This document shows positions 1 to 45,526 of a stretch of 64,000 bases of DNA, piece by piece (positions within the stretch are counted from its first letter, which is position 1; the number at the start of each line of letters is the position of its first letter). This DNA is from Spirochaetota bacterium. GTDB taxonomy: Bacteria > Spirochaetota > Spirochaetia > Treponematales > UBA12059. Position numbers and translations under genes: made by a program. The notes under the pieces are model-generated. The model ran no database searches. It was not told the origin of the DNA and worked only from the letters and a program-made list of their open reading frames with translations. The stretch covers positions 15,191 to 79,190 of the forward strand of contig JAKQKE010000021.1 of NCBI GenBank assembly GCA_029560805.1, in the 5' to 3' direction.

Positions 1-25
1 GGTCCGATTCAGCAGGAGTCGTCGC

Positions 26-367
26 ATGGCTAGAAAAGTCACGAAAGCCGAACTGATAGACGCTCTCCACGAGCGCTCGAACCTCGGCCGTAAAGACATA
101 CACATCCTCATCGACGGCCTGTTCGAAGAGATCAAGAAGGCTATCTTAGAAGAGAAGGCCGTGGAGTTGCGCGGGTTCGGTACCTTCGAGGTGCGCATCC
201 GTAAGGGCCGTAAGCGGGCTCGTAATCCCAAGACCGGCGAACCCGTATCGGTATCGGATCATGGCGTGGCCGTTTTCAGGCCCGGTCGCGAGCTCAAGCA
301 GGAGGCCTGGAAAATCAGCGCCATAGCCTCCCCACCGCCCGATGCAGCCGAAGCGTCGGGCGAATAG
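26..367 (+). CDS. hup: HU/IHF-family nucleoid DNA-binding protein
   Basis: KVTKAELID start, VELRGFGTFEVR and ARNPKTGE signature; RBS AGGAG upstream. Confidence 0.9.
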   Translation: MARKVTKAELIDALHERSNLGRKDIHILIDGLFEEIKKAILEEKAVELRGFGTFEVRIRKGRKRARNPKTGEPVSVSDHGVAVFRPGRELKQEAWKISAIASPPPDAAEASGE

Positions 368-2077: not shown

Positions 2078-2743
2078 GTGAGCAATAAAAAACGCATACT
2101 CGTCGTCGACGACGAGCAGATAAACCTCGAGTTCTTCGATGTAATGCTGTCAAAGCTCGGGTTCGCGGTCCATAAGGCGGAGAACGGGCAGGAAGCCCTC
2201 GAGGCCGTCAGGCGCCTGCGCCCCGACCTGATCATCCTCGATAACATCATGCCCAAGTTGTCGGGCTGGGAAGTGACCAAGATCATCAAGTCGTCGCCGG
2301 AGTACGCAGAATTCTCGGAAATCCCCATCATCATGTTCTCGGCCCTCGACGACGTCAAGGACAAGGTAGAAGGGCTCGAGCTCGGAGCAGACGACTACAT
2401 TACAAAGCCGTTCAACTTCGCCGAGGTCCTGGCCAGAATCCGGGCCATCCTGCGCTCGTACGAACTCGTAAAACAAATAGAGAACCGGGAACAGAGCATC
2501 ATCGTCGGCGAGAGGGCCGTAGCCGAGATGCAGAAGGCGATAGCCTCGACGAAACGATCGCTCGAGCAGATAGGGTCCGCGTCAGACCTGGTTACAGCTA
2601 AGGAGCTGGCGGCCAAGACGAGGGCCGCACTAGTGGAGCTCGACTCCAGGTTCGGCTCGTTCTCCTCCGAGTACGCAGAGCTCCGCAACAAGGCGAGCGA
2701 TATCAAGACGCTACGAGGCAAGCCCCATCGCGCCGAGTCGTAG
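2078..2743 (+). CDS. Response regulator: receiver domain plus C-terminal coiled coil, no recognisable DNA-binding domain
   Basis: ILVVDDE, DLIILDNIMP (phospho-Asp), GADDYITKPF; helical heptad-rich tail; GTG start. Confidence 0.85.
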   Translation: MSNKKRILVVDDEQINLEFFDVMLSKLGFAVHKAENGQEALEAVRRLRPDLIILDNIMPKLSGWEVTKIIKSSPEYAEFSEIPIIMFSALDDVKDKVEGLELGADDYITKPFNFAEVLARIRAILRSYELVKQIENREQSIIVGERAVAEMQKAIASTKRSLEQIGSASDLVTAKELAAKTRAALVELDSRFGSFSSEYAELRNKASDIKTLRGKPHRAES

Positions 2744-6229: not shown

Positions 6230-6829
6230 TTATGGAGCCGCGACCAGGCTACCCAGTAGCGACGAGACCCGGACGAGGGCCCTTCCGCGATGCGACACTC
6301 GGTTCTTTTCCTCGACCGACAGCTCCGCGACGCTACGGCCGAGTTCGGGTAGCAGTACCAACGGGTCATAGCCGAAACCGCCGGATCCCCGTGGTTCTTC
6401 GAGCAGGACGCCCTCGCAGGCCTCCTGAATCACGAAGAACCTATCCCTAGACAGGACCAGCGTCATGCAGCATACGAAACGGCAGGAGCGGTCGCTCCGT
6501 CCGCGCATCTCTCCGAGTAACCGCGCGTTGCGCTCGGCGGCGCCGAGCGGCGTTACGCCGTCAGGGGAGCCGTAGCGCGCCGACAGCACTCCCGGCCTGC
6601 CGCCGAGCGCGTCGACGCAGAGGCCAGAATCGTCGGCGAGGACCGGGGCCCCGACCGCGTGCCAGAGGGCCAGGGCCTTGCCCACGGAATTGCCGATGAA
6701 ATCGTCGGCTGTCTCCTCGTAGTCGAAGTCGACGCCCGCGTCCGACGGTAGTCGTACGTCGACGCCCGGCAGGGCCGGGCGTATCTCGTCGAGCTTATGG
6801 GCGTTGCCGGTCGCTATGTAGATGGTCAT
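6230..6829 (-). CDS. rdgB: Non-canonical purine NTP pyrophosphatase (RdgB/HAM1)
   Basis: IYIATGNAHK, ADDSGLCVDALGGRPGVLSARY, GFGYDP, KNRVSHRGRAL; start at ATG 6829 behind GGAGG RBS. Confidence 0.93.
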   Translation of the reverse strand: MTIYIATGNAHKLDEIRPALPGVDVRLPSDAGVDFDYEETADDFIGNSVGKALALWHAVGAPVLADDSGLCVDALGGRPGVLSARYGSPDGVTPLGAAERNARLLGEMRGRSDRSCRFVCCMTLVLSRDRFFVIQEACEGVLLEEPRGSGGFGYDPLVLLPELGRSVAELSVEEKNRVSHRGRALVRVSSLLGSLVAAP

Positions 6830-6866
6830 CGTTCCTCCGTCCGGCATTCTAGCCCTTCGAACAGGT

Positions 6867-7730
6867 CTACGAATAGCCCGAGTACATCCTGAGCACGCGA
6901 CCGACGCCACAGTCGACGGTGCCCTTGGGTATGCCGAGCAGTTCCGCGACGGCCTTGTTAGGTATGAGCCTGTTCATATGGGCGATCCGCCGAGCGGCCC
7001 GGAGGTACAGTCCACGCTCCCGTTCCACGGTGCCGCGTAGATATCGCCTGGTGTCCTCGTCCGCCTCGCGCGAGAGCCTACGCGCCGCGGCTCCCATCCT
7101 GATCCACGCCACGTTCCTGCCCCGACGCTTCGAGGCGATGCGCGGGTTTATCACGGGGTAAGCGTTCCGCGCCCGTTCGAGGAGGCCGAGCAGCTCGGCA
7201 AGGTCGAAGCCCATCTCTTCGGCTATCGCGGCGACCTGGCCGTCGTCGAGGAGATGCGCGCACTTGACGCAAAGGAACACGATACGTCGCCTGAAAGAAG
7301 TGGCGACTACCCCTACATCGTCCCTGCAGGGGAACGCCGGTCCGGTACTGCCAGGGATATCGTCGTCGGGGGCTGAGTACTCGCAACGCCGTAGGTCTTC
7401 CCAGGCTTCGAAGACCTCGTCGTCGATGACGGCGCCGTCCCTATCATAGCGGCAGACGCGCTGCCTCTTGAGCGAAAGGGCCATGTACCGGAACGAGCTG
7501 ATCGCGAAGGCCTCGAAGCGATAGCCGGTATCCTCGTAGCGATTGGCCAGGTTGCCTATCCTGGTCCAGTAGCGTACGAACACCTCGCCGACCTCGTCTT
7601 CCGACTTGAGTCCGTAGACCCAAGGCCGCTTATAGACATCCGTAGCCATCAGCTCCAGGATGCGCCGTTCCAAGCCCAACTCGCCGTGCTTCTTCCGATC
7701 GACCAGGTCGTTCAGCTCCTCATTAGACAT
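6867..7730 (-). CDS. Atypical ECF/sigma70-like factor: region 2-like N-terminus, long insert, region 4.2 HTH at C-terminus
   Basis: DEVGEVFVRYW...RFEAFAISSFRYMALSLKRQR resembles sigma region 2; IPNKAVAELLGIPKGTVDCGVGR resembles region 4.2; RBS GAGGTG. Confidence 0.6.
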   Translation of the reverse strand: MSNEELNDLVDRKKHGELGLERRILELMATDVYKRPWVYGLKSEDEVGEVFVRYWTRIGNLANRYEDTGYRFEAFAISSFRYMALSLKRQRVCRYDRDGAVIDDEVFEAWEDLRRCEYSAPDDDIPGSTGPAFPCRDDVGVVATSFRRRIVFLCVKCAHLLDDGQVAAIAEEMGFDLAELLGLLERARNAYPVINPRIASKRRGRNVAWIRMGAAARRLSREADEDTRRYLRGTVERERGLYLRAARRIAHMNRLIPNKAVAELLGIPKGTVDCGVGRVLRMYSGYS

Positions 7731-7781
7731 AGACGCACCTCGTTTCTGTGAAGAACGCCGACAATAGCTGAAATCAGTTAT

Positions 7782-7797
7782 TGCAAGAAGCGTACCT
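7782..7797 (-). promoter_or_regulatory. Putative sigma54 (-24/-12) promoter of the sigma-like gene
   Basis: AGGTACGCTTCTTGCA versus consensus TGGCACG-N4-TTGCW; exact GG-N10-GC spacing; in an AT-rich intergenic region about 50 nt upstream of the ATG. Confidence 0.62.
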
Positions 7798-7929
7798 ACA
7801 TGGAGGTGGCTATCCCTTGATCGAGATCCAAGTAATGCCTCAGCATCGACTTACGAGCCAAAAGTAAAGGCCGCCGAGATGCTAAATCCCGACGGCATCG
7901 ATTCGGCTGTTACAAGTAGTTACATTCGC

Positions 7930-8913
7930 CTACGCCAGCAGCGGTTTGAAGGCTTCGATAACCCGCTCGACTATATCGGCGGCCTGGCCGGTTATGTGGA
8001 GCCCGGCGGCTAGGCGATGCCCGCCTCCGCCAAACGACGCTGCGACCGAAGCGACATCGACGGCCTCCCTCGACCTGAAACCGACGGTGCAATCTGTCGG
8101 GCTCTCCTGCCTGACGACTACGGCCACTTCCATACCGGCGACGGTGAGCAGCAACTGGTACAGCATGTCGGAGTCGCGGCCGACGAGACCGTAGCGTTCC
8201 TGGTCAGCCAGGCTCATGCTGGTAACGATCAGCTTACCGTCGTAGCGCGTCTCGGCCTTCGACAGGAGCTCGCCCATCAGCTTCCTGGAGGCGAAGGGCT
8301 TGCCGCCGTTCATCATGTCGAAGGCTCGCTTCGGCGAGGCGCCTGCCTCGACGAGGCGGCCGACGGATGCGAAGACGTCGCCGGAAGTCTCGTCCAGGTG
8401 CCTGAAGAACCCGGTATCGGTACATAGGCCAAAGAGTAGCAGCTCGGCTTCCTCCTTGGTCGGCCGCCCCGAATGGGCCTCGATGATGGACTGCACGAGA
8501 TAGGTAACGGCGGGAGCCCTCGGGTCGACGAGCACCGCATCGCCCGACGCGTTGCCGGAGGCATGATGGTCTATGAAGGCCAGAGGCAGTCCCTCGGGCA
8601 GGCTCAGCCGGATGTCGCCTATCCTGGATAAGGACGAGCAGTCGAGGACGATGATCGCGCTCCCCTCGCCCGCCATGGAGGGATCGGCCTTGTCCGAGAA
8701 GCGGGACGCGTAGCCCGATATCTCGGTCCTGGTGAACGGGCCGGACGATAGGAGATAGACGCGCTTGCCGATCCGCTCGAGGAACGAAGCGAGCGCCAGC
8801 TGGCTACCGACGCAGTCGCCGTCCGGTTCCTTGTGGCCGACCAGTATGAAGCGGCCGTGCGTATCGATGAACCGAAGAATACCTGATCCCTGAATGAGCT
8901 TTTCCTGCGTCAC
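7930..8913 (-). CDS. nrnA: DHH/DHHA1 phosphoesterase (NrnA / c-di-AMP PDE family)
   Basis: GHKEPDGDCVGS, IDHH, TDTGFFRH, GGGGHRLAAG; probable GTG start at 8913 (ORF open to 8967). Confidence 0.85.
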   Translation of the reverse strand: MTQEKLIQGSGILRFIDTHGRFILVGHKEPDGDCVGSQLALASFLERIGKRVYLLSSGPFTRTEISGYASRFSDKADPSMAGEGSAIIVLDCSSLSRIGDIRLSLPEGLPLAFIDHHASGNASGDAVLVDPRAPAVTYLVQSIIEAHSGRPTKEEAELLLFGLCTDTGFFRHLDETSGDVFASVGRLVEAGASPKRAFDMMNGGKPFASRKLMGELLSKAETRYDGKLIVTSMSLADQERYGLVGRDSDMLYQLLLTVAGMEVAVVVRQESPTDCTVGFRSREAVDVASVAASFGGGGHRLAAGLHITGQAADIVERVIEAFKPLLA

Positions 8914-9020
8914 GATACATCCTGGATAGTTGAGTTGCCTGCCGCGCGAATGGGCGACCCCGGCCACCGGCTTGGGGTCGCCCTAGTATATCGAAGAGCT
9001 GATGGTCGGGCTAGGCCGCC

Positions 9021-9461
9021 TTAGAACTCGAGCTTGATCGAATCGACCTTGAACCGGTCTCCCGGGTCGCCTTCTATGACGCCCCAGCTCGCGTCGCGCA
9101 TGTTGGCCAGTACGAATAGCTTGACATGGCTGAAACCGCCGTCGGGGCGATAGTAGACGACCATATACGGATACTGGGGCCCGCGCCCACGCAGTAGCAT
9201 GCCCTTGCCACCTGCAACGAACCATTCGACCGGTATGTATACCTCGGCGAACGAGGTAGCCCCCTTCCTATAGACGACCCTATAGCCCTGAGCGTGGGAA
9301 TATACCCTCGAGACGTCGACGCGTACCGGATAGAGATCGGACTCCATCACGGCATTCCCTACTTTGTCGCGGCCCGAATCGCCGGAGGAGCCGGTAGCAC
9401 CCTGCGCGAAGGCTCCAGCCGCTATGGATACAGCGATGAGGATAATCAAGAATCGTTTCAT
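9021..9461 (-). CDS. Hypothetical exported protein with signal peptide
   Basis: MKRFLIILIAVSIAAGAFAQ signal peptide, GGAGG RBS, aromatic-rich beta-type mature domain. Confidence 0.75.
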   Translation of the reverse strand: MKRFLIILIAVSIAAGAFAQGATGSSGDSGRDKVGNAVMESDLYPVRVDVSRVYSHAQGYRVVYRKGATSFAEVYIPVEWFVAGGKGMLLRGRGPQYPYMVVYYRPDGGFSHVKLFVLANMRDASWGVIEGDPGDRFKVDSIKLEF

Positions 9462-9510
9462 GCTTCCTCCATACCGGGCGAACCACGATAGCGGCCAGCC
9501 CAGTATGGAT

Positions 9511-9539
9511 AGTATAAAACGGCCGAGGCTAATTCGCAA
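9511..9539 (-). promoter_or_regulatory. Putative sigma70 promoter for 9021-9461
   Basis: TTGCGA, 17 nt, TATACT. Confidence 0.6.
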
Positions 9540-9618
9540 TGTGTTTACTCCAAGCCCGGTACGGCCTGGGTAGCGGCCGCGGCTTGCCAAGGGAAAGCCC
9601 CGATGCGATATTCCATGC

Positions 9619-10266
9619 ATGGACTACTCGACGCGACCCGACGCCCGTATACTCTATGACACGCTCGTTCCTATCTGGCCCGACCGCGGTTCAGCCCTAA
9701 GCTACCGCAACTGCTTCGAGCTGCTGATCGCGGTGATACTTTCGGCACAATGCACCGACGAGCAGGTGAATAAGGTGACGCCCGCCCTGTTCGAGGCGTA
9801 TCCGACGCCCGGAGACTTGGCCGAAGCAAGCCTGGCGGACGTGGAGTCGCTCGTACGTACCACCGGCTTCTTCCGCGCCAAGGCCGCGAATATAGTCGGA
9901 GCCGCAACCATCATCGCCCGGGATCTCGGCGGAACCGTGCCCGATACCATCGAGGAGTTGGTCAAGCTGCCCGGCGTCGGCCGCAAGACGGCGAACCTGA
10001 TCGTCAGCGTCTGCTTCGGCAAACCAGGCATAGTCGTCGACACGCACGTGCTCAGGACGGCGAGGCGGCTAGGGCTGGCCCCTACCGACGACCCGGGCAA
10101 GAGCGAACGGATGCTCGGCGCGGCCCTGCCCGAGTCGATGTGGACCGCGTTTTCCTACGCTCTCAACCGCCACGGCAAGTACGTCTGCCGTGCCAGGAGA
10201 CCTCTGTGCGCCGAGTGCCCGCTGGCTGGGATATGCCCCTCCGCCGCCGATTTCATGGCTAGCTGA
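9619..10266 (+). CDS. nth: Endonuclease III
   Basis: LLIAVILSAQCTD, HhH LPGVGRKTAN, VVDTHV, C-X6-C-X2-C-X5-C FeS motif. Confidence 0.95.
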   Translation: MDYSTRPDARILYDTLVPIWPDRGSALSYRNCFELLIAVILSAQCTDEQVNKVTPALFEAYPTPGDLAEASLADVESLVRTTGFFRAKAANIVGAATIIARDLGGTVPDTIEELVKLPGVGRKTANLIVSVCFGKPGIVVDTHVLRTARRLGLAPTDDPGKSERMLGAALPESMWTAFSYALNRHGKYVCRARRPLCAECPLAGICPSAADFMAS

Positions 10267-12057: not shown

Positions 12058-13302
12058 TCACAGCTCCAGAGAAGCCTCGTCGCAGGCGAACCTGTTCGAC
12101 TCATCGGCGTAGAGCGACCTGCGTAGCTCGCTGTAGGCGTCCTGCTCGGCGTTGATGAAGGCGACGCCGTAATACTCGTTATCCCGGTCGTCGAATCGTC
12201 TCGCGACTCGGCCTTTCATGGCGACGCTCGAGCCTCCGCCATCCTTGCCGATCAGGATGTCGAGTACCGCGCCGCTCTTGAGCTTGACCTTGAAGCTCGA
12301 CTTCGGCATCGACAGAAGGCAACCTCCGGCCGATAGGTCGACGACCTGAGGCGTATAGGGATCCGGCTTCGAGTCCTCGGACAGCTTGAAGTAGTCGTTG
12401 GACTTCAGGCTATAGGCGAGGATGCGCGAGAACTCCCACGCGAAATCGACGGCCCGATAGTCGAGGCAGGTCTTCTTGGACGAGTCATTCATCAGGTAAA
12501 TGTAGCCGACGACGTACTGATAATAGAGTATGGGGCAGTACAGCTCCGAGACGATGCCGACGGCGGCCTTCTCGGCGCGGCTCCGTTCGAAGGCGGAGCC
12601 CTCGACGAAGATCGACGGCCCCTCGAACGCGTCGGCCATGGCCTGCGTCACGATCCGACCCTCGGGGTAGGGGTCGACGGCCGGGAGCGGGCTCGAGGTG
12701 CTGGTCATGAGCAGCGTCCGGCCCGTCTCGGCTATCAGCCGTTCCTCGATGCTCTCGGGCTTGCGCCCCTTGTTGAACATGAGGATGCCGCTCTTGGAGA
12801 ACATCGGCTGCGCCTTATCGCGGAAGCTGGCGAGTAGCCCGTTGATGGACTCGGTGTCGAACCCGACGCTCAGAGCGGGCATCTCGAGCTCTGAGTATTC
12901 CTCAGACTCGGGGCAATCGATGCGGATACGTTCGTTCTGGAGGTAGAATTCGAGCCTGAGGTCTTTGGGAGGAGGCACCCTGACCGCCTTGCGCTGCGGG
13001 GCCTTGACGAGGTTCTCGGGCAGGCCGATGACGATCTCGCCGCCGGCGACGCGCTTGACCTTGCCGGGGAAGGTGACTCGCTGGCTCTGGTACGATAGGA
13101 AGACGGAGACTGGGTCCCAGGATTTGAACGCCTCGGCTGCGGACGCTGTGGCGCTCAGGCTGAGCGTCTCCTTATCGAAGGCCTTGAGCCGGCCGTCGAC
13201 GCTCTTGCCCGAGCCTATGACCACCACCCTGCTACCGGACTTCTGCACCTGGTTGAGTATGAATTCTTTTTCTATGAACGTCGCTAGCTTCGGCATCGGC
13301 AT
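12058..13302 (-). CDS. PilZ-domain c-di-GMP receptor-like protein with internal GAF-like segment
   Basis: RxxxR (QRKAVR), C-terminal DLSAGG and YYGVAF PilZ motifs; SELYCPIL..VVGYIYL GAF-like strand pair. Confidence 0.75.
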   Translation of the reverse strand: MPMPKLATFIEKEFILNQVQKSGSRVVVIGSGKSVDGRLKAFDKETLSLSATASAAEAFKSWDPVSVFLSYQSQRVTFPGKVKRVAGGEIVIGLPENLVKAPQRKAVRVPPPKDLRLEFYLQNERIRIDCPESEEYSELEMPALSVGFDTESINGLLASFRDKAQPMFSKSGILMFNKGRKPESIEERLIAETGRTLLMTSTSSPLPAVDPYPEGRIVTQAMADAFEGPSIFVEGSAFERSRAEKAAVGIVSELYCPILYYQYVVGYIYLMNDSSKKTCLDYRAVDFAWEFSRILAYSLKSNDYFKLSEDSKPDPYTPQVVDLSAGGCLLSMPKSSFKVKLKSGAVLDILIGKDGGGSSVAMKGRVARRFDDRDNEYYGVAFINAEQDAYSELRRSLYADESNRFACDEASLEL

Positions 13303-16696: not shown

Positions 16697-17995
16697 ATGT
16701 TCGAGAACATCCTGTGGCAGCCTAACGCGACCGAGGCCCTCAAGGCCGAGCTGGACCGGGGAGCCCTACCAGGCTCGCTCCTGTTCGAGGGCCCGCCCCT
16801 GTCGGCGAAGCTCAGCTCCGCCCTCGAGCTGTCCAGGGCTCTGTCCTGCGAGCGCGATGCCGCCTGGAACTGCCCCTGCCAGCAGTGCTCACGGCACAGG
16901 ACGCTATCGCACCAGGATACGCTGTTGCTCGGCCCCAAGTCCTTCAGGGAGGAACTCGCCATAGGCGCGGCCATGATGGAGCGCGCCCCCGGCTCGGGCT
17001 CGAGGTTCTTCTTTACCCGTGCGGTCAAGAAGCTGACGAGGCGATTCGACCAGGAGCTATACGCCGGCGAGGAAGCGAGGCTCTCCAAGGCCCTACCGCT
17101 GGTGCGTTCCGCTCTCGAGGGCGTCGACGCCTGCGCGCCGGCTTCCCCGACGTGCCGCTCGAGCGCCCTATCCGATGACGAGGCCGTCAAGGAAGCGGGT
17201 AAGCTGCTCGGCGTCTGCGCCAAGCTCGAGGACCTGCTCCCGGCAGCCACGCCGGTTTTTCAGGTTCGAGCCATGGAATTCTGGGCCAGGCTCGCGCCCT
17301 ACGGCAGGCGCAAGACCATCATAATCGAGCACGCGGACCGCATGCTCGACGCCTCAAGGAACGCGCTGCTCAAAATACTCGAGGAGCCGCCCGAGCACGC
17401 CGTGTTCGTCCTGACCTCGAGCCGTAAGGCGGCGCTGATACCGACCGTACTCTCGAGGGTCAGACCATATCGCTTCGCCCAGCGGACGGGCGACGAGGCC
17501 CGAGCCGTGATCGAGCGCATCTTCAAGGACGACGCGGCCGGCGCCCCGACGCTTGGCGAGTACGTCTCCCGCTACAGGCCGTCGTCGACCGGCGCAGTGG
17601 ACGGCCTGGCCAGGGACTTGGCGGCGGCCATAGTTGCGGCCGCCGAGCGGAGGCGCGGCCCCTTCACCGAGGAAGCGCTATCGTCGCTCGCCTCGTCTGG
17701 CGGGCCGGTCCAGGCGGCGATCGCCGCGGCCCAGTCAGCCACCGCCAACTTCGGGTCGGCCGACGAGGCTTTCGCGTGGGCCTTCCCCGCCCTGATGGAC
17801 TCGGTCGGCTCGATCTTCGCGGCTATGCTCCGGCTACCAGGCGCCGGGCTCGAGACCCAGCGCGCCGCCGAGCTGTACGCGTCCTTGGCGCGAGACGCGA
17901 TGATCCGCTACTCGTCATACAACCTCCAGCCGACGGCCCTCGTCGAGCGCCTGGCCGACGCCTTCGCCGACGGTTGCCAGGACGGCCGCCCATGA
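16697..17995 (+). CDS. holB: DNA polymerase III delta-prime-like clamp loader subunit
   Basis: LLFEGPPLSAK, C..C..C zinc module, IIEHADRM, NALLKILEEPP, LIPTVLSR. Confidence 0.7.
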   Translation: MFENILWQPNATEALKAELDRGALPGSLLFEGPPLSAKLSSALELSRALSCERDAAWNCPCQQCSRHRTLSHQDTLLLGPKSFREELAIGAAMMERAPGSGSRFFFTRAVKKLTRRFDQELYAGEEARLSKALPLVRSALEGVDACAPASPTCRSSALSDDEAVKEAGKLLGVCAKLEDLLPAATPVFQVRAMEFWARLAPYGRRKTIIIEHADRMLDASRNALLKILEEPPEHAVFVLTSSRKAALIPTVLSRVRPYRFAQRTGDEARAVIERIFKDDAAGAPTLGEYVSRYRPSSTGAVDGLARDLAAAIVAAAERRRGPFTEEALSSLASSGGPVQAAIAAAQSATANFGSADEAFAWAFPALMDSVGSIFAAMLRLPGAGLETQRAAELYASLARDAMIRYSSYNLQPTALVERLADAFADGCQDGRP

Positions 17996-19197
17996 GGAAA
18001 TTCCTCGAGCGGGCGATGGAGAAGGTCTCCCGCATGAACGAGGAGTCCATCCGCGGGCTCCTGCGCGTGCTGGCCGACGAGAACGAGCGGCTCGACGCGG
18101 TGCTCGACTCGATGCTCGACGGCATCGTCGTCTGCGACGAGGACCACGCGCCCATCCTGGTCAACAAGGCCGCCGAGCGACTCCTGCCGATGGCGCAGGC
18201 CGAGCTGTTCGACCTGCCGCTCTGGGAGAGCGTGCGGGACGATGAGCTCGCCGGTTTCTTCGACGCCGCGCTGAACGGCGAGGAGTCGGTCATCGACAGG
18301 GAATTCGCGCTCGACGCCAAGGCCGGCACGCGCATCATATCCGTGTCGGTTACCCCGCTCGTCCGGGACAAGCGTATCCGCGGCACCTTGATCCACGTCG
18401 AGGAGACGACCGACAAGCGGCGCAGGGAGGCCAGGCTACGCAGGGCCGAGAACCTGGCGTCGCTGACGACCCTGGCCGCCGGCGTCGCGCACGAGATCAA
18501 GAACCCGCTCGGCTCCATCAGCATCCACGTCCAGCTCATGCGCAAGGCTCTCAAGGGCCTGGCCGACGAGCCGCCGATAGGCCGCTACCTCGACGTCGTC
18601 ACCGAGGAGATCGACCGCCTCAACAAGATAGTCGTCGACTTCCTGTTCGCCGTCCGGCCCATGGACATAGCCCCCATCAACGACGACCTGAACGCGCTCC
18701 TGCGGGAGCTTGCCGAGTTCATGCGCGTCGAAGTTGAAAGCGCCGGCATCGAGCTGTCGGTCGACTACGGGAAGGACGTACCGCCCTTCCCGTTCGACCG
18801 GCGCTACCTCAAGCAGGCCCTGCTCAACCTGGTCAAAAACGCGGCCGCAGCCATGCCCGACGGCGGATCGCTCCGGCTGACGAGCGAAGCCTCGGCCGAG
18901 GAAGCCAGGATAACCGTCTCAGATACGGGCGTCGGCATCACCGAGGATCGCCTCGGAAAGATCTTCGAACCGTACTATACGACCAAAGAGAACGGGACCG
19001 GCCTCGGCCTGACCCTGACCTATAAGATAGTCAAGGAGCACGGCGGCGACATCACCGTCACCTCGAAGGCGGGCCAGGGCTCGACCTTCGTCCTTGCGCT
19101 ACCGATACCGCAGCGAGACCGCCGCATGATCACCGGGGCCTGCCCCGACGGCGAGGCTTGCGAGCACGAGCCGCTACCCGATACGGAGGAAGGATGA
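17992..19197 (+). CDS. PAS-domain sensor histidine kinase (NtrB/Hk2-like), cytoplasmic
   Basis: PAS (DSMLDGIVVCD...NKAAE), AHEIKNPL H-box, NLVKNA, DTGVGI, GTGLGL; no TM segment. Confidence 0.92.
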   Translation: MRKFLERAMEKVSRMNEESIRGLLRVLADENERLDAVLDSMLDGIVVCDEDHAPILVNKAAERLLPMAQAELFDLPLWESVRDDELAGFFDAALNGEESVIDREFALDAKAGTRIISVSVTPLVRDKRIRGTLIHVEETTDKRRREARLRRAENLASLTTLAAGVAHEIKNPLGSISIHVQLMRKALKGLADEPPIGRYLDVVTEEIDRLNKIVVDFLFAVRPMDIAPINDDLNALLRELAEFMRVEVESAGIELSVDYGKDVPPFPFDRRYLKQALLNLVKNAAAAMPDGGSLRLTSEASAEEARITVSDTGVGITEDRLGKIFEPYYTTKENGTGLGLTLTYKIVKEHGGDITVTSKAGQGSTFVLALPIPQRDRRMITGACPDGEACEHEPLPDTEEG

Positions 19198-20549
19198 GGT
19201 TTACCGTACTCGTCGTAGACGACGAGAAGAACATACGCGAGGGTCTCGGCGAGTACCTGCGCCTGGACGGCTACGACGTCGAGCTTGCCGCCGACGGCAG
19301 GGAGGGCGTGGCGCTGGCGGACCGCGGCGGCGTCGACCTCGTCATCACCGACCTGCGCATGCCCGCCCTCTCCGGGGGCGAACTGCTGAGGCACGTCGTA
19401 TCGCGCTACCCCTCGGTCCCGGTCATCGTGTTGACCGGCCACGGCACCGTCGAGGACGCCGTCGACGCGATGCGCTCCGGCGCCTACGACTTCATCACGA
19501 AGCCGGTCAACCTCGATCACCTGTCGATCCTGGTCAAGCGAGCCCTTGAGCGGCGTGAGCTGTCCAGGCGGAACGAGGAGCTGCTCGAGGAGATAGAGAC
19601 GCAGCGGCGCACCTCGAGCATCATCGGCAGGAGCCCCGCGATCAGCCGCATCATGGAGCTGGTGCGCCGGGTGGCTCCTACCAAGGCGAGCGTGCTGATA
19701 ACCGGCGAGTCCGGCGTCGGCAAGGAGCTGGTCGCCGACGCGATCCACAACCTGTCGCCGCGAGCCGACGGGCCGTTCATCAAGGTGCACTGCGCGGCTC
19801 TCGCCGAGTCCCTGCTGGAGAGCGAGCTGTTCGGGCACGAGAAGGGTTCGTTCACCGGCGCCCAGGCCAGGAAGAAGGGCCGCTTCGAGCTCGCCAACGA
19901 AGGCACGCTCTTCCTCGATGAGATTGGCGAGATCAACCAGAACGTGCAGATCAAGATACTGCGGGTGCTGCAGGACAAGCGCTTCGAGCGCGTCGGCGGC
20001 GAGGAGACGATCGAGACCGACGTAAGGGTCGTCGCCGCGACGAACCGCGACCTGAAGGACGAGATCGCGGCCGGGAAGTTCCGTGAAGATCTATACTATA
20101 GGCTCAACGTCGTCAATATCCACGTACCGCCGCTCAGGGAGCGCAAGGACGATATTCCCCTCCTGGCTGGTGCCTTCCTCAGGGAATTCGCCGAGGACAA
20201 CGGCAAGGGAGTCGAGGGTTTCGACCCCAAGGCGCGGGCCGCCCTCTACGCCTATGCCTGGCCGGGCAACGTTCGCGAGCTGCGCAACTGCATCGAGAGC
20301 GCGGTCGTGATGGCCTCGGGCGGACTCGTCACGCTCGACGATCTGCCGCCCGGGGTGAGTACCAGCGCCTCCGATAGCGACATCCGCGTGCCGCCCGGCT
20401 CGAGCCTGGCCGACGCGGAGCGCATCCTGATACGGGAGACGCTCGCCGCCCAGGGCGGGAATAAGAGCCGCACGGCCGAGATCCTCGGGATAGGCAGGAA
20501 GACCCTGTACCAGAAGATCCAGGACTACGGCCTCGAGACGAGCGCCTAG
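19194..20549 (+). CDS. Sigma54-dependent response regulator / enhancer-binding protein (NtrC/Rrp2-like)
   Basis: REC domain, GESGVGKE Walker A, GSFTGA loop, LFLDEIGE, WPGNVREL, Fis-type HTH. Confidence 0.95.
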   Translation: MRFTVLVVDDEKNIREGLGEYLRLDGYDVELAADGREGVALADRGGVDLVITDLRMPALSGGELLRHVVSRYPSVPVIVLTGHGTVEDAVDAMRSGAYDFITKPVNLDHLSILVKRALERRELSRRNEELLEEIETQRRTSSIIGRSPAISRIMELVRRVAPTKASVLITGESGVGKELVADAIHNLSPRADGPFIKVHCAALAESLLESELFGHEKGSFTGAQARKKGRFELANEGTLFLDEIGEINQNVQIKILRVLQDKRFERVGGEETIETDVRVVAATNRDLKDEIAAGKFREDLYYRLNVVNIHVPPLRERKDDIPLLAGAFLREFAEDNGKGVEGFDPKARAALYAYAWPGNVRELRNCIESAVVMASGGLVTLDDLPPGVSTSASDSDIRVPPGSSLADAERILIRETLAAQGGNKSRTAEILGIGRKTLYQKIQDYGLETSA

Positions 20550-21181
20550 GAGACTTCCTCGCCCCGGGCCGGCGCGACGGCCGACTGGCTGGACTCCATG
20601 GCGAGCCTGTAGGCGATCGAGCGTCGGCGGGGATCCTCGTCGGTCCTGGCGACCTCGATGGCGGCAGAGAAGAGCGGGTCGCGCGTCGCCCTCGCCGCGT
20701 CGAGCATGGCGTCGCGTAAGCCCGGCCCCCCGCGCTGGTAGGCGTCGGCTACCTCGCCTGAGCCCTGGGCCAGCCCAAGCACGGCGGCGGCCCTGACGCA
20801 GGCGGCCGCCACCTCTTCGTCGCGGTCGTATAGCCCCTTGCGCAGGAAAACCCAGGCGCTGCGCTTTCCGGTCAGCCCGAGCCTCCTGGCCGCGGCCCGA
20901 CGTCGCGCGGGGTCGGGATGCGTGGACAGCTCGACGCCGAGGGCGAACAGGTCGGTTCGTCCGGGCTCCTCGAGTGGCCGCAACGTCGCCGGACGCTCGC
21001 GCTCCGCGACCCTGAGCGTCTGGTAGGCCTTGGCGACCATCGAGAAGCGTCGGGCCGTCGACGGATCGCCGGACGCGTCCGGGTGCAGCCGCAGGCTCAG
21101 GTTGCGATACGCCCGCTTGATCTCCTCCGACGGCGCCCCAGGCTCCAGGCCGAGCGCCAGGTACATCGCGCGCTCGCTCAT
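20546..21181 (-). CDS. J-domain co-chaperone with C-terminal HEAT-like repeats
   Basis: Y..LGL......EIKRAYR.L...HPD J-domain; Ala/Arg-rich HEAT-like helices. Confidence 0.82.
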   Translation of the reverse strand: MSERAMYLALGLEPGAPSEEIKRAYRNLSLRLHPDASGDPSTARRFSMVAKAYQTLRVAERERPATLRPLEEPGRTDLFALGVELSTHPDPARRRAAARRLGLTGKRSAWVFLRKGLYDRDEEVAAACVRAAAVLGLAQGSGEVADAYQRGGPGLRDAMLDAARATRDPLFSAAIEVARTDEDPRRRSIAYRLAMESSQSAVAPARGEEVS

Positions 21182-22893
21182 GCGCCACCCGCGGCCGCGC
21201 GGCCCCGGAACGGTAGCTCCGACGGTCGCCGAGCGTCGGCTTCAGAACGCCCCGTCCTAGCGGACAGCTCGGATAGGAGCCCCTCGAGCAGGGTCGCGAC
21301 CATGGCGGCCTTCTCATCGTCATCGCCGCATGACTCGGCCATCGCCAGCACGTCCCCGATCTCGGCGCCCAGGGCCGCGTCGACGATGGCCTCCGCCGAT
21401 TCCCGCCTGACTATCTGCGCCAGGGCGAGCACCCTGTCGCGCGGCGAGCGCGAGTCACGCTCCCCGTCGAACACCGCGATGGACTGCTCCGCGCCCGTAT
21501 CCAGGTCGCGGGCCCTGACTATCATCATGTCGCCCTCGTCTATGGCGAATTCGACGGCGATGCGGGGCTCGCCCCTGGTCGCCTTGCGGATGCCCGGCAA
21601 GAGGAAACGCCCTACCGAGGCGTTATCCGAGGCCCGTTCCGACTCGCCCTGGAGCACGTGCAGCTCGACCGAGCGCTGGTAGTCCTCGACCGTGGTAAAG
21701 ACGCGGCGGCCGACGGCGGGCAGCGGCTCGTCCTTCACGATCAGCGGGACGAAGGATCCGCCGTCTATCTCGAGGCCGAAGGTGCGCGAGCAGACGTCGG
21801 TGAAGGACAGTCCCTTGAGCCGGCCCTCTATCCTAGCGGCCTCGACGGCCGCCCCGAGCGCGACTATCTCCTCGGGGTTGATCCTGGGGTCGGCGTCGCG
21901 CCCCAGGAGCTCGGCGAGACGGCGCTTGGCCAGGGGGATGCGGCTCGAGCCGCCGGATAGTACGAGCGCGTCGACGTCGCGGACTCCCGCCTTGGCGGTG
22001 CGGAGCACCCGCTCGACGAGGGCCAGACTACGATCTATGAACGGCGAGGCTATCGCCTCGAAGGCGGCTCGCTCCAGTCGGACGCTCGGGTGGACGACGC
22101 CGCCGGCGCCGCGCAGGAAGGGCACGGCTATCGTCGCCTCGTCGCGGCTCGACAGCTCGATCTTGGCCCGTTCGCACAGGTCGACGAGGGTCCTGGCCAG
22201 GTAGGGATCGGCCGACGGATCGATGCCGAACTCGAGCCTGAAGCGCTCGGCCACCGTCTCGTAGATCGCCGCGTCGATATCCATGCCGCCGAGCGCGTCG
22301 TCGCCCTCGCTCGACAGGACCGAGCACGAGCCGCCCCTGGCCCGCAGCGCGGTGGCGTCGAAGGTGCCGCCGCCGAAGTCGTACACCAGGACGAGCCGCT
22401 CCGATTCGTCGCGGGCCGACAGCCAGGCCTTGGCCAGGGCGGCGGCGCTCGGCTCGTTCATCACGCGGGCGGCCTTGAGGCCGGCCATCGCGGCGGCGTC
22501 GCGGACGGCCCTGCGCTGGCGGTCGCCGTACCTGGCCGGCACCGTTATCACGGCTCGGTCCGCCTCGAAGCCTAGATACGACTCGGCGTCGCGCTTGACC
22601 TTACCGATGATGGCCGCTGCGGCTTCCTCCGGCGCACGCTCCCTCCCGCCGAACACGAGCGCCTGGGACTTTCCGAGCAGACGCTTGACGCCGAACAGGG
22701 CCGAGGCGGGATCGGCCAGGGCCTGGTTACGGGCGGACGAGCCGACGAGCGCTTCTCCGGATCCCGACACGGCGACGACGGACGGCGTCGCCCGTTCTCC
22801 CCGGTCGTTCGGTACGATGATGGGCGTATCGCCGTCCATCCAGGCGCAGAGGGTATTGGTGGTTCCGAAATCCAGGCCTATCACGCCGCGCAC
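21178..22893 (-). CDS. Divergent Hsp70-family protein (DnaK paralogue, short lid)
   Basis: GLDFGTTN, TPSVV, AVITVPA, NEPSAAA, YDFGGGTFD, LSGGSSRIP, TTVEDYQ..V..HVLQGE. Confidence 0.9.
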   Translation of the reverse strand: MRGVIGLDFGTTNTLCAWMDGDTPIIVPNDRGERATPSVVAVSGSGEALVGSSARNQALADPASALFGVKRLLGKSQALVFGGRERAPEEAAAAIIGKVKRDAESYLGFEADRAVITVPARYGDRQRRAVRDAAAMAGLKAARVMNEPSAAALAKAWLSARDESERLVLVYDFGGGTFDATALRARGGSCSVLSSEGDDALGGMDIDAAIYETVAERFRLEFGIDPSADPYLARTLVDLCERAKIELSSRDEATIAVPFLRGAGGVVHPSVRLERAAFEAIASPFIDRSLALVERVLRTAKAGVRDVDALVLSGGSSRIPLAKRRLAELLGRDADPRINPEEIVALGAAVEAARIEGRLKGLSFTDVCSRTFGLEIDGGSFVPLIVKDEPLPAVGRRVFTTVEDYQRSVELHVLQGESERASDNASVGRFLLPGIRKATRGEPRIAVEFAIDEGDMMIVRARDLDTGAEQSIAVFDGERDSRSPRDRVLALAQIVRRESAEAIVDAALGAEIGDVLAMAESCGDDDEKAAMVATLLEGLLSELSARTGRSEADARRPSELPFRGRAAAGGA

Positions 22894-23560: not shown

Positions 23561-23884
23561 TTATCCCGATATGTCGACGTGGCCGCCGAGAGATGGGTCG
23601 CTGATCGTCTCGGCCTCGTCGTCCCCGGCCGGCGTCTCCTCGCGGCGTCGCTCGCCGCCCTGGCTGCCGACGCCCGAACCTCCGTCGCCATTGACCGACT
23701 TGGCGGCGGCCTGGTCGTCCTTTGGCCGTTGTACGGCCTTGGCGGCCTCGTCCTCGAGCCGCTTCACCACGGTGCCGTGAAGGTTGGCGTGGAGCAGTGC
23801 CCCGTCCTTGGCCGCCGCCTGCTCCTTGCCGACCTGGGACAACTGCAAGAACAGGGTCTGCAGGTCAATCGGCTTTATGGGCAT
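23561..23884 (-). CDS. Hypothetical protein of the type seen downstream of fapA
   Basis: MPIKPIDLQ start and G..VDI end; in operon. Confidence 0.7.
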   Translation of the reverse strand: MPIKPIDLQTLFLQLSQVGKEQAAAKDGALLHANLHGTVVKRLEDEAAKAVQRPKDDQAAAKSVNGDGGSGVGSQGGERRREETPAGDDEAETISDPSLGGHVDISG

Positions 23885-25853
23885 CCGGCGGTCCTTTCCG
23901 GAGGATCTCGTCGTCGAACTCCTCGTAGCGCGTGGTCTTGATCATCATGTTCTCGAGATAGAAGGTCAGGCCCTTGTACTCGTTCTTGATCTTCTCGCGG
24001 ATGTCGCGGATCACGATCTCCGAGCCGGGGTAGATCCTGCCCGAGACGCTGACCTTGCCGCGAACCTTCAGGTTGTTCAGGTAGGCCTGCAGGGCGTCGT
24101 ACTCGTCCTTGAGCGACGAGGACTCCTGCTTGAGCTCGTCACGGCGGTGGGTCAGCTCGTCCAGGACAGCCTGCTTATCGTCCGAAAGCGTCTTGCGCTG
24201 GCGTTTGGTCTCGTTCAGGGTATAGATGTTCTTGTCCAGCTCGTCGATCTGGCGCTGGAGCAGCTTCATCTTGCCGTCAAGCTCGTCCATCTTGAGCTTG
24301 CTCTTCGGGTCGCTGCCGACCTCGAGTATCGTCTCGGCACCGCCCGACGGCGAGCCGATCGACTTGGCGTTGATTTCCTCGCAGGCGCGGTAGCGGCCTC
24401 CGATGATGGCGGCGTGCTTCTGGCCGGAGCACAGGATGCGCTTCTCGGCGGTGATCTCCGAGTTGATGATGCTGGTCTGGACGATGACGTTCTCGCCGGC
24501 GTAGAGCTGCGCGTTCTCGATGAACTTGGCCCAGACGTTCTTGCCGGCCGTGATCACGCCCGCGCCCTTCCCGGTGATGCCCTGGTGGACGATGACGTCG
24601 CCCTCGGCGCTGATCTCGGCCTTGCCGACGTTGCCGCGCACTTCGATATTGCCGGTGGCCTTGACGGAGAAGCCGTCCTCGACGTTGCCGACGACGACTA
24701 TGGTGCCGAGGAAGAACTGGTTTCCGGTCTTGAGGTCGACGTCCCCGTTGATGGTATAGACGGTCTCGACGTTGATCTTGCTGTTGATGTAGGTGGCCTC
24801 GCCGTTGACATCCGCTATGACGGTGAGGCCGTCGTCGCTCTCGTGGACGTTCTTGCCGAGCGGAAGCGGCAGGTCCTTGCCGTTTTTGGCCGGTAAGAGC
24901 TTGCCGGTCACGGTACGGCCCGGCACGCCCTGCTTGGCCTGGACCTTCTTGGCCAGGGCCTGCCCCTCGACCACGTTCTGGACGAGGTGCAACTCCTTGT
25001 AGTCCACCTTGCCGTTCTTCTCCTCGAGGTTCAGCTTGGTGCGGTCGGTCTCGAACAGGAATTGGATGCGGGCATCGTCGCCGTTGACGGCGCGCTGTCC
25101 CTGGGCAACGAGGACAGGCTCCTTGTAGCGAGGAGCATCCTCGAGGCCCTGGAGCGCCTCCTCGATCACGCCGAAGACGACCTTGTTGTTGCGCAGGTAG
25201 GCGAGTATAACGTCCTTGGACAGGTCGCATCCGCCGGGCTGCGGCGGCGTGATTATGACGCGGGCCTCCATCTCCTGGGAGCCGATGTCGACGGTCAGGA
25301 GCGCGTCGGCGGCGGGATTGGCGATGAAGTCGCCGACGACCACCCATTCCCCGGCCGCCCGCTTGACCGTCTCGCGCACGAGCGCCTCGTCGAAGTCGTG
25401 GATCGCGCGCGCGTGGAGCTTCTCGACGGCTTGCTTGTCGGTGGCGCGGCGGCCCCTGCCCTGGGGCTCGGCTACCTTGAGCAGGGCGCCTTCGGTGGCG
25501 AGCCGCACGTAGACCTGGCCGTCGACGTCCTGCTGGATGGGCTTGAGCTCGATCGGCAGGTCGAGGCCGCCGTCGAAGGACTCGATCGACGACTCCTCGA
25601 CCTTCTGCTTGACCGCGGCCTCGTAGACGCTCAGCTTCCATTTCTTTCGGCCCAGGCCGACGAAGCCCTGCGCCCCACGCTCGAGAATGTCGTACTCGAG
25701 CCTGGCCACCGGGCAGTCGAGCTGGACGGAAGCGCTCCGGAGCGCTTCCTCGAGCGTGGCGCCCTCGGCTACTATCGCGCGCTTGTCGCCGTCCTCGTCC
25801 AGGTAACGGCGCATCAGCTCGCGGACCGCGTCGAAGCCTATGCGCGCCTCCAT
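23865..25853 (-). CDS. fapA: Flagellar assembly protein A (DUF342) with N-terminal Jag_N-like domain
   Basis: EGATLEEAL....L......YDILERG..GFVGLG Jag_N-like start; GDVDLKTGN, G.VEDGF.V.A beta-helix repeats; C-terminal coiled coil. Confidence 0.82.
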   Translation of the reverse strand: MEARIGFDAVRELMRRYLDEDGDKRAIVAEGATLEEALRSASVQLDCPVARLEYDILERGAQGFVGLGRKKWKLSVYEAAVKQKVEESSIESFDGGLDLPIELKPIQQDVDGQVYVRLATEGALLKVAEPQGRGRRATDKQAVEKLHARAIHDFDEALVRETVKRAAGEWVVVGDFIANPAADALLTVDIGSQEMEARVIITPPQPGGCDLSKDVILAYLRNNKVVFGVIEEALQGLEDAPRYKEPVLVAQGQRAVNGDDARIQFLFETDRTKLNLEEKNGKVDYKELHLVQNVVEGQALAKKVQAKQGVPGRTVTGKLLPAKNGKDLPLPLGKNVHESDDGLTVIADVNGEATYINSKINVETVYTINGDVDLKTGNQFFLGTIVVVGNVEDGFSVKATGNIEVRGNVGKAEISAEGDVIVHQGITGKGAGVITAGKNVWAKFIENAQLYAGENVIVQTSIINSEITAEKRILCSGQKHAAIIGGRYRACEEINAKSIGSPSGGAETILEVGSDPKSKLKMDELDGKMKLLQRQIDELDKNIYTLNETKRQRKTLSDDKQAVLDELTHRRDELKQESSSLKDEYDALQAYLNNLKVRGKVSVSGRIYPGSEIVIRDIREKIKNEYKGLTFYLENMMIKTTRYEEFDDEILRKGPPDAHKAD

Positions 25854-28288: not shown

Positions 28289-28313
28289 ACGAGCACTCCA
28301 TCGATACGGCGGG

Positions 28314-29492: not shown

Positions 29493-29495
29493 AAT

Positions 29496-45085: not shown

Positions 45086-45526
45086 CTAGCGTGCGTCGGC
45101 ACGGGCGTGCGCCCCGGCGGCCAGGTCGTCCATCGCCTTCGTCTCTTCGCGGGCGACCGCCTTATAGTACACGGCTTCTTCTCGCTCCCTCAACTTGGTG
45201 ACGAGGCGGCGGGCCTTGGTAGCCTCGACGTAGTCGACGCGCGCCGCCTCGCGCTCGAGCTCGGCGGCCGCCAACGACTTGAACAGCCGCTCGCGCTCCT
45301 GCGACAGCCTGACCGCGTACAGCTCGCCGGCCCGGTGGTCCGACGCGTCGCTACCCGGCCTGAAGCGCTCCCTGGCGGCCTCCACCGCGGCGCGGGCGTT
45401 AGCCTCGAGCGCCAGGGTCAGGCGGGAGCAGACGGCCGTCTTTTCGCCCAGGACGGCCTCCGCGACCTTCTCGTCATATTCTCGCAGCTCAAGCACGCGC
45501 TCGAGCTTGAACGCGAAACTCCTCAC
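45086..45526 (-). CDS. fliJ: Flagellar export protein FliJ
   Basis: F.FKLERVL.LR start, coiled coil, E.K.MDD end; after fliI. Confidence 0.88.
   Translation of the reverse strand: MRSFAFKLERVLELREYDEKVAEAVLGEKTAVCSRLTLALEANARAAVEAARERFRPGSDASDHRAGELYAVRLSQERERLFKSLAAAELEREAARVDYVEATKARRLVTKLREREEAVYYKAVAREETKAMDDLAAGAHARADAR

Follow-up and report, generated by a model that had tools for sequence, protein, structure and literature searches.

What does sigma-54 (RpoN) control in spirochaetes? Its role is essentially unknown except in Borrelia and, to a minor degree, Leptospira. The question is raised afresh by a stretch of 64,000 nucleotides (nt) from a Spirochaetota bacterium (assembly GCA_029560805.1, contig JAKQKE010000021.1), referred to below as the window, in which an unannotated gene for a very divergent sigma70-family protein, here named sigX, is preceded by a candidate -24/-12 promoter of the sigma-54 type. 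A preliminary description of the window had read this arrangement as a candidate cascade running from RpoN to an orphan sigma factor. That proposal is supported by the conservation of the promoter box in relatives and by the sigma-like fold of the SigX protein, with functional links between the parts that we infer from the DNA. A sigma-54-type promoter and an accompanying direct repeat are conserved in about 80 related genomes ahead of the sigma-like gene, which makes it very probable that one sigma factor switches on another. The explanation we consider best, and a probable one, is a two-tier cascade in which a kinase acts on an activator that, together with RpoN at the box at 7797-7782, turns on sigX, whose product would then serve a regulon of its own.

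The box, AGGTACGCTTCTTGCA, lies on the minus strand (context ...CCATGT AGGTACGCTTCTTGCA ATAACTG...) within a 199-nt intergenic region (7731-7929) and ends 51 nt ahead of the sigX ATG, just as first described in sequence, position and approximate distance. Its GG and GC stand exactly 10 nt apart, and of the 12 positions that TGGCACG-N4-TTGCW specifies it fits 10, departing from the consensus in an A for T at -26 and a T for C at -23. These two departures speak against a promoter, and so do counts across the window, which is rich in G+C: GG-N10-GC occurs 1202 times where 1233 are expected, and the full consensus with at most two mismatches four times where 6.6 are expected. Taken alone, the window box is at chance level. 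The exact spacing, offered in the preliminary description as evidence, has no weight by itself; it acquires weight through its conservation in relatives. The sole other window match with at most two mismatches that keeps both GG and GC is TGGCGCGCTCGGTGCT (46310-46325, minus strand; again 10 of 12), which we regard as a chance match, since it falls within fliI (45523-46959), the gene for the flagellar ATPase.

Close relatives provide the first of the evidence that carries the case. A protein search returned 32 close homologues of SigX, all from uncultured spirochaetes, and a scan of one genome per species yielded 13 loci. Where their upstream DNA is readable, these loci carry a box of the form nGGTACGsTTnnTGCA placed 67-108 nt before the ATG; the single exception to this form, L009, is cut at a contig end and has GGCACGGTTCGTGAT. 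GG and GC are kept at exact spacing in 12 of 12 loci of the window's own clade. Because the 16-nt box, when used as an anchor across these 12 loci, holds 1.50 bits per position compared with 0.26 and 0.35 in the 45-nt flanks, it is a footprint rather than residual similarity.

The association extends far beyond the clade. For a family-wide survey, protein similarity alone served to choose 80 loci from metagenomes and 17 from genomes or assemblies, 89 of them with readable upstream DNA; the metagenome loci were retrieved with the protein motif PKG[ST]VDSGL, which comes from a 16-sequence subgroup and takes in orthologues and paralogues alike. Boxes were scored on the sense strand, within 200 nt upstream of the start, as matches out of the 12 consensus positions. 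A perfect box is present at 27 of the 89 loci, with scores of 11, 10 and 9 at a further 17, 21 and 12, respectively. A score of at least 10 is thus reached at 65 of 89 loci; among random 200-nt windows taken from this DNA the share is 0.3%, and 0.01% of them score 12. With two start-codon calls corrected, 78 of 89 loci have a box of at least 9/12 situated 27-122 nt ahead of the start codon. Perfect boxes (TGGCACGTTTTTTGCT, TGGCACGGTCCTTGCT and TGGCACGCGGCTTGCA) stand before three distant members with 15-29% protein identity, and L013, at 30%, has one too; conservation of GG and GC upstream of orthologues, a check proposed at the outset, therefore holds to 15-30% protein identity, in many cases with a perfect consensus. 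Elsewhere in the 671 kilobases (kb) of collected sequence, only two boxes reach 11/12, both within open reading frames. Owing to this scarcity and to the distribution of scores over the 89 loci relative to random windows, the link between the sigX family and a sigma-54-type promoter is, on sequence grounds, beyond reasonable doubt.

The exceptions form a coherent group of AT-rich loci (33-35% G+C), several of them from termite-gut metagenomes. Four of these (L076, L082, L085 and L088) have neither a sigma-54 box nor a GTAA repeat and have in common a motif, AAATTGAAGCAGTTTGCATATTTAATGAGTTTTA, about 150 nt upstream of the gene; in this termite-gut-like lineage sigX may have been rewired to another promoter. 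A few others are truncated.

What, then, would act at the promoter? A second conserved element that the preliminary description had overlooked, the direct repeat TGTAACTACTTGTAAC, is a candidate site. It begins 6 nt past the stop codon of the upstream gene, which encodes a DHH-family phosphoesterase, and TGTAAC-N4-TGTAAC has a single exact copy in the window. Orthologous clade loci have two to four repeat units in 10-base-pair (bp) register at the same place, and each locus has the repeat once or twice at a constant position. The family-wide equivalent is TGTAAACGAATGTAAA in most loci, with aaTTGTAAACGAATGTAAAga as the wider-family form. Of 74 unique loci with a box, 58 have GTAA-N6-GTAA in the 260 nt ahead of it, compared with 1.6% of random windows and with none of 11 loci without a good box. 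In 32 loci the repeat begins at a distance of exactly 52 nt from the T of TGGCAC, on its upstream side, and the other spacings (-51 in five loci, -53 in one, -41/-42 in five and -62 in one) fall in steps of about one helical turn, a helical phasing. In the clade of the window, the repeat stands 100-216 nt from the box, with the terminator of the DHH gene (7896-7870 in the window) between them. A reading of the TGTAAC repeat as an ECF-type (extracytoplasmic function) -35/-10 promoter was tried and rejected: no conserved -10-like element lies at 16-17 nt, and in the clade a terminator follows directly.

The repeat is most likely the binding place of the activator or of a co-regulator. Tolerance of distance, helical phasing and loss together with the box are what would be expected of the enhancer of a sigma-54 activator, a reading somewhat favoured over that of a separate co-regulator. 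A point to the contrary is that the HTH_8 (Fis-type) domains of NtrC-type proteins usually bind inverted rather than direct repeats, which weakens the assignment of this repeat to the activator. It is thus conceivable, even if we lean the other way, that the repeat is the site of a separate regulator, for example of the OmpR/PhoB type, acting in a BosR-like manner while the activator works independently of a specific site, as reported for Rrp2. GTAAA-N5-GTAAA with its 10-bp period has the classic geometry of OmpR/PhoB-family sites and is identical to the consensus of the Escherichia coli CpxR box. In most loci the site is centred only about 70 nt ahead of the predicted start, a short distance for a DNA loop. 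BosR, moreover, binds direct repeats at the sigma-54-dependent rpoS promoter of Borrelia (PMC3037356). Set against these points, the repeat is lost together with the box in every locus that lacks a good one, it has been kept in the clade despite a move to 100-216 nt, as an enhancer would allow, and none of the neighbourhoods examined has a gene for an OmpR-type regulator linked to the locus. Alternatively, the repeat may be bound by SigX itself, which has two helix-turn-helix (HTH) units.

Is the product of the gene a sigma factor? Evidence that it is comes from its two ends. Residues 1-100, modelled alone with AlphaFold2, give a confident fold (predicted local distance difference test, pLDDT, 90.8; predicted template-modelling score, pTM, 0.79), for which about 40 of the top 50 Foldseek matches in the PDB are sigma2 domains (TM 0.5-0.68). 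Among the matches are ShbA (probability 0.97), SigI6 (TM 0.67, root-mean-square deviation 3.3) and the sigma2 domain of Mycobacterium tuberculosis SigC (TM 0.68, deviation 2.8), together with sigma-S, sigma-32, sigma-E, SigW, AlgU and WhiG. The sequence pattern of this domain is ED-x-x-x-E-x-F-x-x-x-W ... F-E-A-(F/Y)-L ... R. At the opposite end, a C-terminal HTH with the signature IA-x-x-LG-(I/V)-PKG(T/S)VD(S/C)G aligns, in the family profile, to region 4.2 of SigR and SigH, and hhalign places the profile on region 4.2 of E. coli RpoE (E=1.5e-4; C-terminal HTH only, with a manually entered RpoE sequence). The sigma2 fold and region 4.2 HTH envisaged in the preliminary description are accordingly both recovered. 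The NCBIfam sigma70-ECF model TIGR02937 joins the two ends, matching residues 41-272 of the window protein to profile positions 26-150 (E=1.7e-5), and 76 of 115 diverse family members match it at E<=1e-3, the best at 4.5e-12. All remaining NCBIfam matches of the 115 are to sigma families, except for CsgD in one member; their Pfam matches are Sigma70_r4_2 (21), r2 (6), r4 (4) and r3 (1).

Between these ends lies a structured insert of about 140 residues that includes a further HTH and a helical hairpin, and the middle and C-terminal HTH units resemble one another (hhalign probability 75%, E=2.5e-5). Sequence and models together indicate that SigX is a sigma70-related protein of three modules: a sigma2 fold, an extra HTH and a sigma4.2-like HTH. 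The label "ECF-like" is only partly apt. SigX does not fit the strict ECF definition, under which sigma2 and sigma4 are joined by no more than a short unstructured linker and an anti-sigma factor or another group-typical regulator is encoded alongside. Although ECF models come nearest to it in sequence, it differs from canonical ECF sigma factors, and its length, about 290 residues, is that of group 3. No anti-sigma-like gene was seen beside sigX, whose neighbours are the DHH gene and rdgB in nearly all loci.

Several results argue against a sigma function. The TIGR02937 match, the one positive outcome for the window protein of the profile search first suggested, scores 24.5 bits against a curated cut-off of 42.9; SigX falls below every curated sigma threshold, and a Pfam scan of the window protein gave no match. 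By way of internal control, the FliA protein of the same window passes all three Pfam sigma models, which gives a measure of how divergent SigX is. Foldseek with the whole 287-residue model (32-sequence alignment, pLDDT 80, pTM 0.44) found nothing significant in the PDB, probably owing to uncertain relative placement of the domains, and all Foldseek E-values exceed 0.1 (0.17 and above for the N-terminal domain); weak individual E-values are usual for small helical domains, and the N-terminal matches agree with one another. A PDB profile search matches the last 30 residues only, to ECF region 4.2 at E 0.2-0.6, and with another family profile only a weak MarR-like match appears. Alignment of the family profile to single RpoE and window FliA sequences by hhalign gives the C-terminal HTH alone or nothing credible. 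Finally, the recognition helix reads PKGTVD(C/S)G where ECF factors have GTVKSR, and so is missing the usual basic contacts to the -35 element.

These results leave room for an explanation in which the promoter is real and SigX is something other than a sigma factor, either a sigma mimic that ties up core polymerase or a regulator that binds DNA on its own, assembled from HTH modules of sigma type. Such a regulator might feed back on its own promoter, its two HTH units contacting the tandem TGTAAC/TGTAAA repeats. The presence of two HTH units that resemble one another would fit this explanation, as would the upstream element with its pair of direct half-sites at a 10-bp interval, the sub-threshold sigma scores and the altered recognition helix, and there is precedent in HrpL, which negatively autoregulates near its sigma-54 promoter (PMC5263251). 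We nonetheless judge it unlikely. The N-terminal domain has a confident sigma2-type fold whose structural neighbours are nearly all sigma2, most of the 115 members match a whole-sigma model, and the single match in the window protein spans both of its ends. To our knowledge, sigma2 has no role beyond RNA polymerase binding and -10 recognition. It is very improbable that the window box is a chance match or decayed relic, with sigX and rdgB depending for their expression on read-through or on a sigma70 promoter that escaped recognition: its chance-level score, two mismatches and loss from the AT-rich termite-gut-like relatives with their different conserved motif are outweighed by the 12 of 12 clade loci that keep GG and GC amid randomised flanks, by a promoter scan of 6700-8000 that found no sigma70-like promoter in the sigX intergenic region, by a terminator that blocks read-through, and by the nifH-type GGTA -24 element, which works in known sigma-54 promoters.

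The sigX family is large and, as far as seen, confined to spirochaetes. A profile search of 1.84 billion representative proteins places 796 clusters in it at E<=1e-3 and 443 at <=1e-10, nearly all of 280-330 residues, which amounts to about 800 clusters at 50% identity with the signature (I/V)PKG(T/S)VDSG(L/I)(Y/F)Y. All named members come from metagenome-assembled genomes of Spirochaetales or Spirochaetia, with no cultured organism in the cluster look-ups; a profile search of a word-indexed protein database matched almost only the close clade. Within the clade, three cysteines are nearly invariant: C154 and C157, a C-x-x-C in the middle HTH (FLCVKCA), and C274 in the recognition helix (VDCG). 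At these places the sequence in the wider family is LKCA and VDSG. The clade cysteines might serve in redox or metal sensing.

How might the parts work together under the two-tier cascade? Sigma-54 RNA polymerase would sit at the box at 7797-7782 as a closed complex, the opening of which calls for an AAA+ enhancer-binding protein. The obvious candidate is the NtrC-type regulator encoded at 19158-20549: its Pfam domains all score above threshold, its AAA+ domain has an intact GSFTGA loop (of the GAFTGA type), and it matches Aquifex NtrC-family structures over its full length (E=2e-115). The intact activator, PAS kinase and HU/IHF gene that the preliminary description had noted in the window are indeed there, the first two with their Pfam domains confirmed. 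The PAS domain of the kinase would sense a cytoplasmic signal and the kinase would phosphorylate the activator, which would assemble, probably on the TGTAAC repeats at 7924-7909. With DNA bending—the HU/IHF-like protein could assist looping at the sigX promoter—the activator would contact the sigma-54 holoenzyme and open the promoter. Transcription would then run from near 7771 through sigX and probably rdgB, giving SigX and RdgB, and SigX would most likely bind core RNA polymerase and redirect it to a regulon of its own.

The functional links in this scheme are all presumptive. The activator at 19158-20549 would act on the sigX promoter from a gene 11 kb away, which is unlinked to sigX in the other neighbourhoods examined. 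A search for the RpoN-box motif, a point against the cascade, found no rpoN in the window, in the collected loci or in the 10 kb beyond either end of the window. The genome presumably encodes it, given the intact activator and the boxes of consensus grade, which would not persist without sigma-54. Convergent to the activator gene and directly after it, a non-canonical chaperone pair is encoded (20546-22893, minus strand), consisting of an Hsp70-like protein and a protein that combines a DnaJ domain with HEAT repeats.

Table 1. Features of the sigX locus, of its candidate regulators and of the SigX protein; positions are those of the window unless given as residues.
Feature	Position	Strand	Description and basis
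HU/IHF-like DNA-bending protein gene	about 20-367	plus	Six-frame motif search; Bac_DNA_binding assigned to the called gene
rdgB/Ham1	6230-6829	minus	Non-canonical purine nucleoside triphosphate pyrophosphatase; Pfam Ham1p_like, 4e-53
sigX (name used here)	6867-7730	minus	287-residue divergent sigma70-family protein; ATG at 7730
Shine-Dalgarno GAGGTG	7736-7741	minus	Read in the sequence; predicted 41-nt sigX leader
Sigma-54-type -24/-12 element AGGTACGCTTCTTGCA	7782-7797	minus	GG 7796-7795, GC 7784-7783; predicted transcription start near 7771
Terminator-like hairpin GCCGTCGGGATTTAGCATCTCGGCGGC with T-rich tail	7860-7896	minus	Terminator scan; closes the DHH gene, between repeat and promoter
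Direct repeat TGTAAC-N4-TGTAAC, TGTAACTACTTGTAAC	7909-7924	minus	10-bp period; 126 nt upstream of the box; candidate enhancer (upstream activating sequence) or regulator-binding site
DHH/DHHA1 phosphoesterase, stand-alone, NrnA/DhhP-like	7930-8967	minus	Pfam DHH and DHHA1; conserved neighbour upstream of sigX
PAS-HisKA-HATPase histidine kinase	17776-19197	plus	Pfam; directly upstream of the activator gene and overlapping it; presumed cognate sensor
NtrC-type enhancer-binding response regulator	19158-20549	plus	Pfam receiver (Response_reg), Sigma54_activat (3.6e-73) and HTH_8, all above threshold
fliA, canonical sigma-28	25855-26643	minus	Pfam r2 1e-17, r3 1e-8, r4 1e-20
SigX sigma2-like domain	residues ~1-95		AlphaFold2 model and Foldseek
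SigX disordered stretch	residues 94-128		AlphaFold2 model
SigX middle HTH domain	residues ~141-190		Confident three-helix domain; AlphaFold2 model
SigX long helical hairpin	residues 196-251		AlphaFold2 model
SigX sigma4.2-like HTH	residues 258-282		Profile alignment

The surroundings of sigX are conserved as well. In the 13 loci from the scan of one genome per species the gene order is recQ, nth, a TP_0437-family gene, DHH, sigX, rdgB (Ham1), rpmE and rho; the neighbour genes are 67-98% identical to those of the window, SigX only 42-82%. Only 37 nt separate the sigX stop codon from the start of rdgB, and since this short gap holds no terminator and rdgB directly follows sigX in nearly all 97 loci, the two genes are probably co-transcribed as a single operon. 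On the other side of sigX, loci L001-L007 have hairpins with T-runs similar to the terminator-like hairpin of the window and in the equivalent position. The DHH gene product is called as 327 residues in public assemblies. The DHH-DHHA1 enzyme of Borrelia, DhhP, is a cyclic di-AMP phosphodiesterase linked to RpoS production, and the presence of a DHH gene next to sigX may be more than coincidence.

Further features of the window deserve brief mention. The protein at 9021-9620 (minus strand) has no match in the Pfam scan of the window; the public gene call there is a shorter, 146-residue product with a precomputed match to PF27399 (TP_0437 family). The TP_0437-family gene is kept upstream of DHH in most family loci and serves as a synteny marker of spirochaete origin. 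The flagellar cluster runs flhA-flhF-flhG(ParA-like)-x-fliA (27422-31589, minus strand, with fliA), and FapA is encoded at 23865-25853. Neither the receiver-only response regulator with a coiled-coil tail at 2078-2743 (plus strand) nor the large PilZ-domain protein at 12058-13302 (minus strand) was linked to the sigX finding.

How tightly is SigX synthesis tied to the sigma-54 promoter? The distance from box to start codon falls into classes that bear on this question. In 14 loci (L017, L030, L033, L035, L042, L047, L048, L050, L052, L057, L063, L072, L078 and L083) the box is 27-28 nt before the ATG, a distance that puts the predicted sigma-54 start on the ATG itself, so that a leaderless mRNA is predicted. 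In 44 others (L026-L075 and others) the distance is 37-60 nt, and the stretch of about 10 bases that separates the -12 GC from the predicted +1 (as a rule CTTTCCTCC) can base-pair with the ribosome-binding site, GGAGGAAAG. Hairpins in this class are far more stable than those of shuffled sequence (median z -2.55), and in 24 of the 44 loci three or more bases of the Shine-Dalgarno sequence are paired to positions ahead of the predicted start. The anti-Shine-Dalgarno hairpin would be present only in RNA reading through from the DHH gene, and absent from RNA started by sigma-54. In the clade of the window, DHH is followed by a terminator and the leader is of the ordinary kind; in the window itself the sigX leader folds no better than shuffled sequence (z=0.32), and a hairpin masking its Shine-Dalgarno sequence is unsupported. 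Leaderless mRNA, anti-Shine-Dalgarno hairpin and upstream terminator may, in essence, be interchangeable ways of tying SigX synthesis to the sigma-54 promoter. The arrangement recalls Borrelia, where long and short rpoS transcripts differ in translatability.

Together with the two-tier cascade, these observations invite a broader reading, which we put forward tentatively, as one that may well not hold: a hitherto unrecognised three-domain sigma70-like clade hard-wired to sigma-54 across free-living and host-associated spirochaetes, through composite wiring of a phased TGTAAACGAATGTAAA repeat and a -24/-12 box, as an ancestral RpoN-to-sigma design with promoter-gated translation. If true, the RpoN-RpoS pathway of Borrelia would be one derived version of an older spirochaete circuit, and the gating would be a compact insulation of a master regulator from transcriptional read-through. 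At the level of the single locus, sigX presents a concrete, conserved and probably primary target of sigma-54, its promoter, start site and candidate enhancer being predicted to the nucleotide, and SigX would add to the sigma70 tree a branch between ECF and group 3 architectures. With four parts—RpoN, activator, promoter and SigX—the system lends itself to testing in a heterologous host.

Among known systems, the Hk2-Rrp2-RpoN-RpoS pathway of Borrelia burgdorferi, in which a sigma-54 promoter drives another sigma factor (PMC3037356, PMC12655853), offers a close likeness. Both are found in spirochaetes, both would pair a regulator of receiver-AAA+-HTH_8 plan with a cytoplasmic PAS kinase—the activator and kinase of the window share the domain plans of Rrp2 and Hk2—and in both a -24/-12 promoter, with direct repeats nearby (BosR-bound in Borrelia), precedes a sigma output. 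In both, too, a sigma gene stands out, sigX being the only strong sigma-54 target visible in the collected DNA. The systems differ in their output, which here is a sigma70-like family below curated models instead of RpoS, in their genomic context, which here is DHH, sigX and rdgB, and in the sequence of the repeat; the system described here is a prediction from sequence. Our literature searches found no paper describing a sigma-54 target of the sigX kind in Treponema-like spirochaetes, and nothing relevant on a sigma-54-to-sigma link in spirochaetes or Treponema or on the TP0437-TP0440 neighbourhood of T. pallidum.

Individual parts also have counterparts elsewhere. SigX shares with ECF and group 3 sigma70 factors the sigma2 fold and the C-terminal HTH signature IA-x-x-LG-x-P-x-GTV, and differs from them in the middle HTH and coiled-coil between sigma2 and sigma4 and in having D(S/C)G for KSR. 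Nor does the family match any of the groups (ECF208, 229 and 242) cited for Spirochaetes from the ECF reclassification of 2021, all of which have anti-sigma partners. As for the repeat, its half-site and 10-bp phasing in the family consensus TGTAAACGAATGTAAA equal those of OmpR/PhoB operators such as the CpxR box; here, in contrast, the repeat accompanies a sigma-54 promoter, and regulators of that type cannot activate such a promoter alone.

In flagellar cascades, such as those of Vibrio, Pseudomonas and Campylobacter, sigma-54 and an NtrC-type activator turn on FliA. In the window, by contrast, fliA is a separate, canonical gene within the flagellar cluster with no sigma-54 box of at least 10/12 nearby, so that the flagellar genes here would not be an RpoN output. 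For an ECF-type sigma factor under the control of sigma-54, the nearest precedent is a system absent from the preliminary description, HrpR/S-sigma54-HrpL of Pseudomonas syringae and Erwinia, in which a sigma-54 promoter makes an ECF sigma (ECF32) without an anti-sigma partner (PMC5263251, PMC7826278). Sigma-54 with enhancer-binding proteins, the lack of an adjacent anti-sigma gene and control through the sigma gene's own transcription are common to both. HrpL, however, is a canonical two-domain ECF factor, recognised by ECF models and encoded within a type III secretion cluster, whereas SigX has its insert of about 140 residues, is spirochaete-specific and is paired with rdgB. The two-tier logic itself is therefore already known, from RpoN-RpoS, RpoN-HrpL and the flagellar route from sigma-54 to FliA; what the sigX locus adds is an unclassified sigma70-like output confined, as far as seen, to spirochaetes, a composite promoter with a phased repeat, and the breadth of the association between the two.

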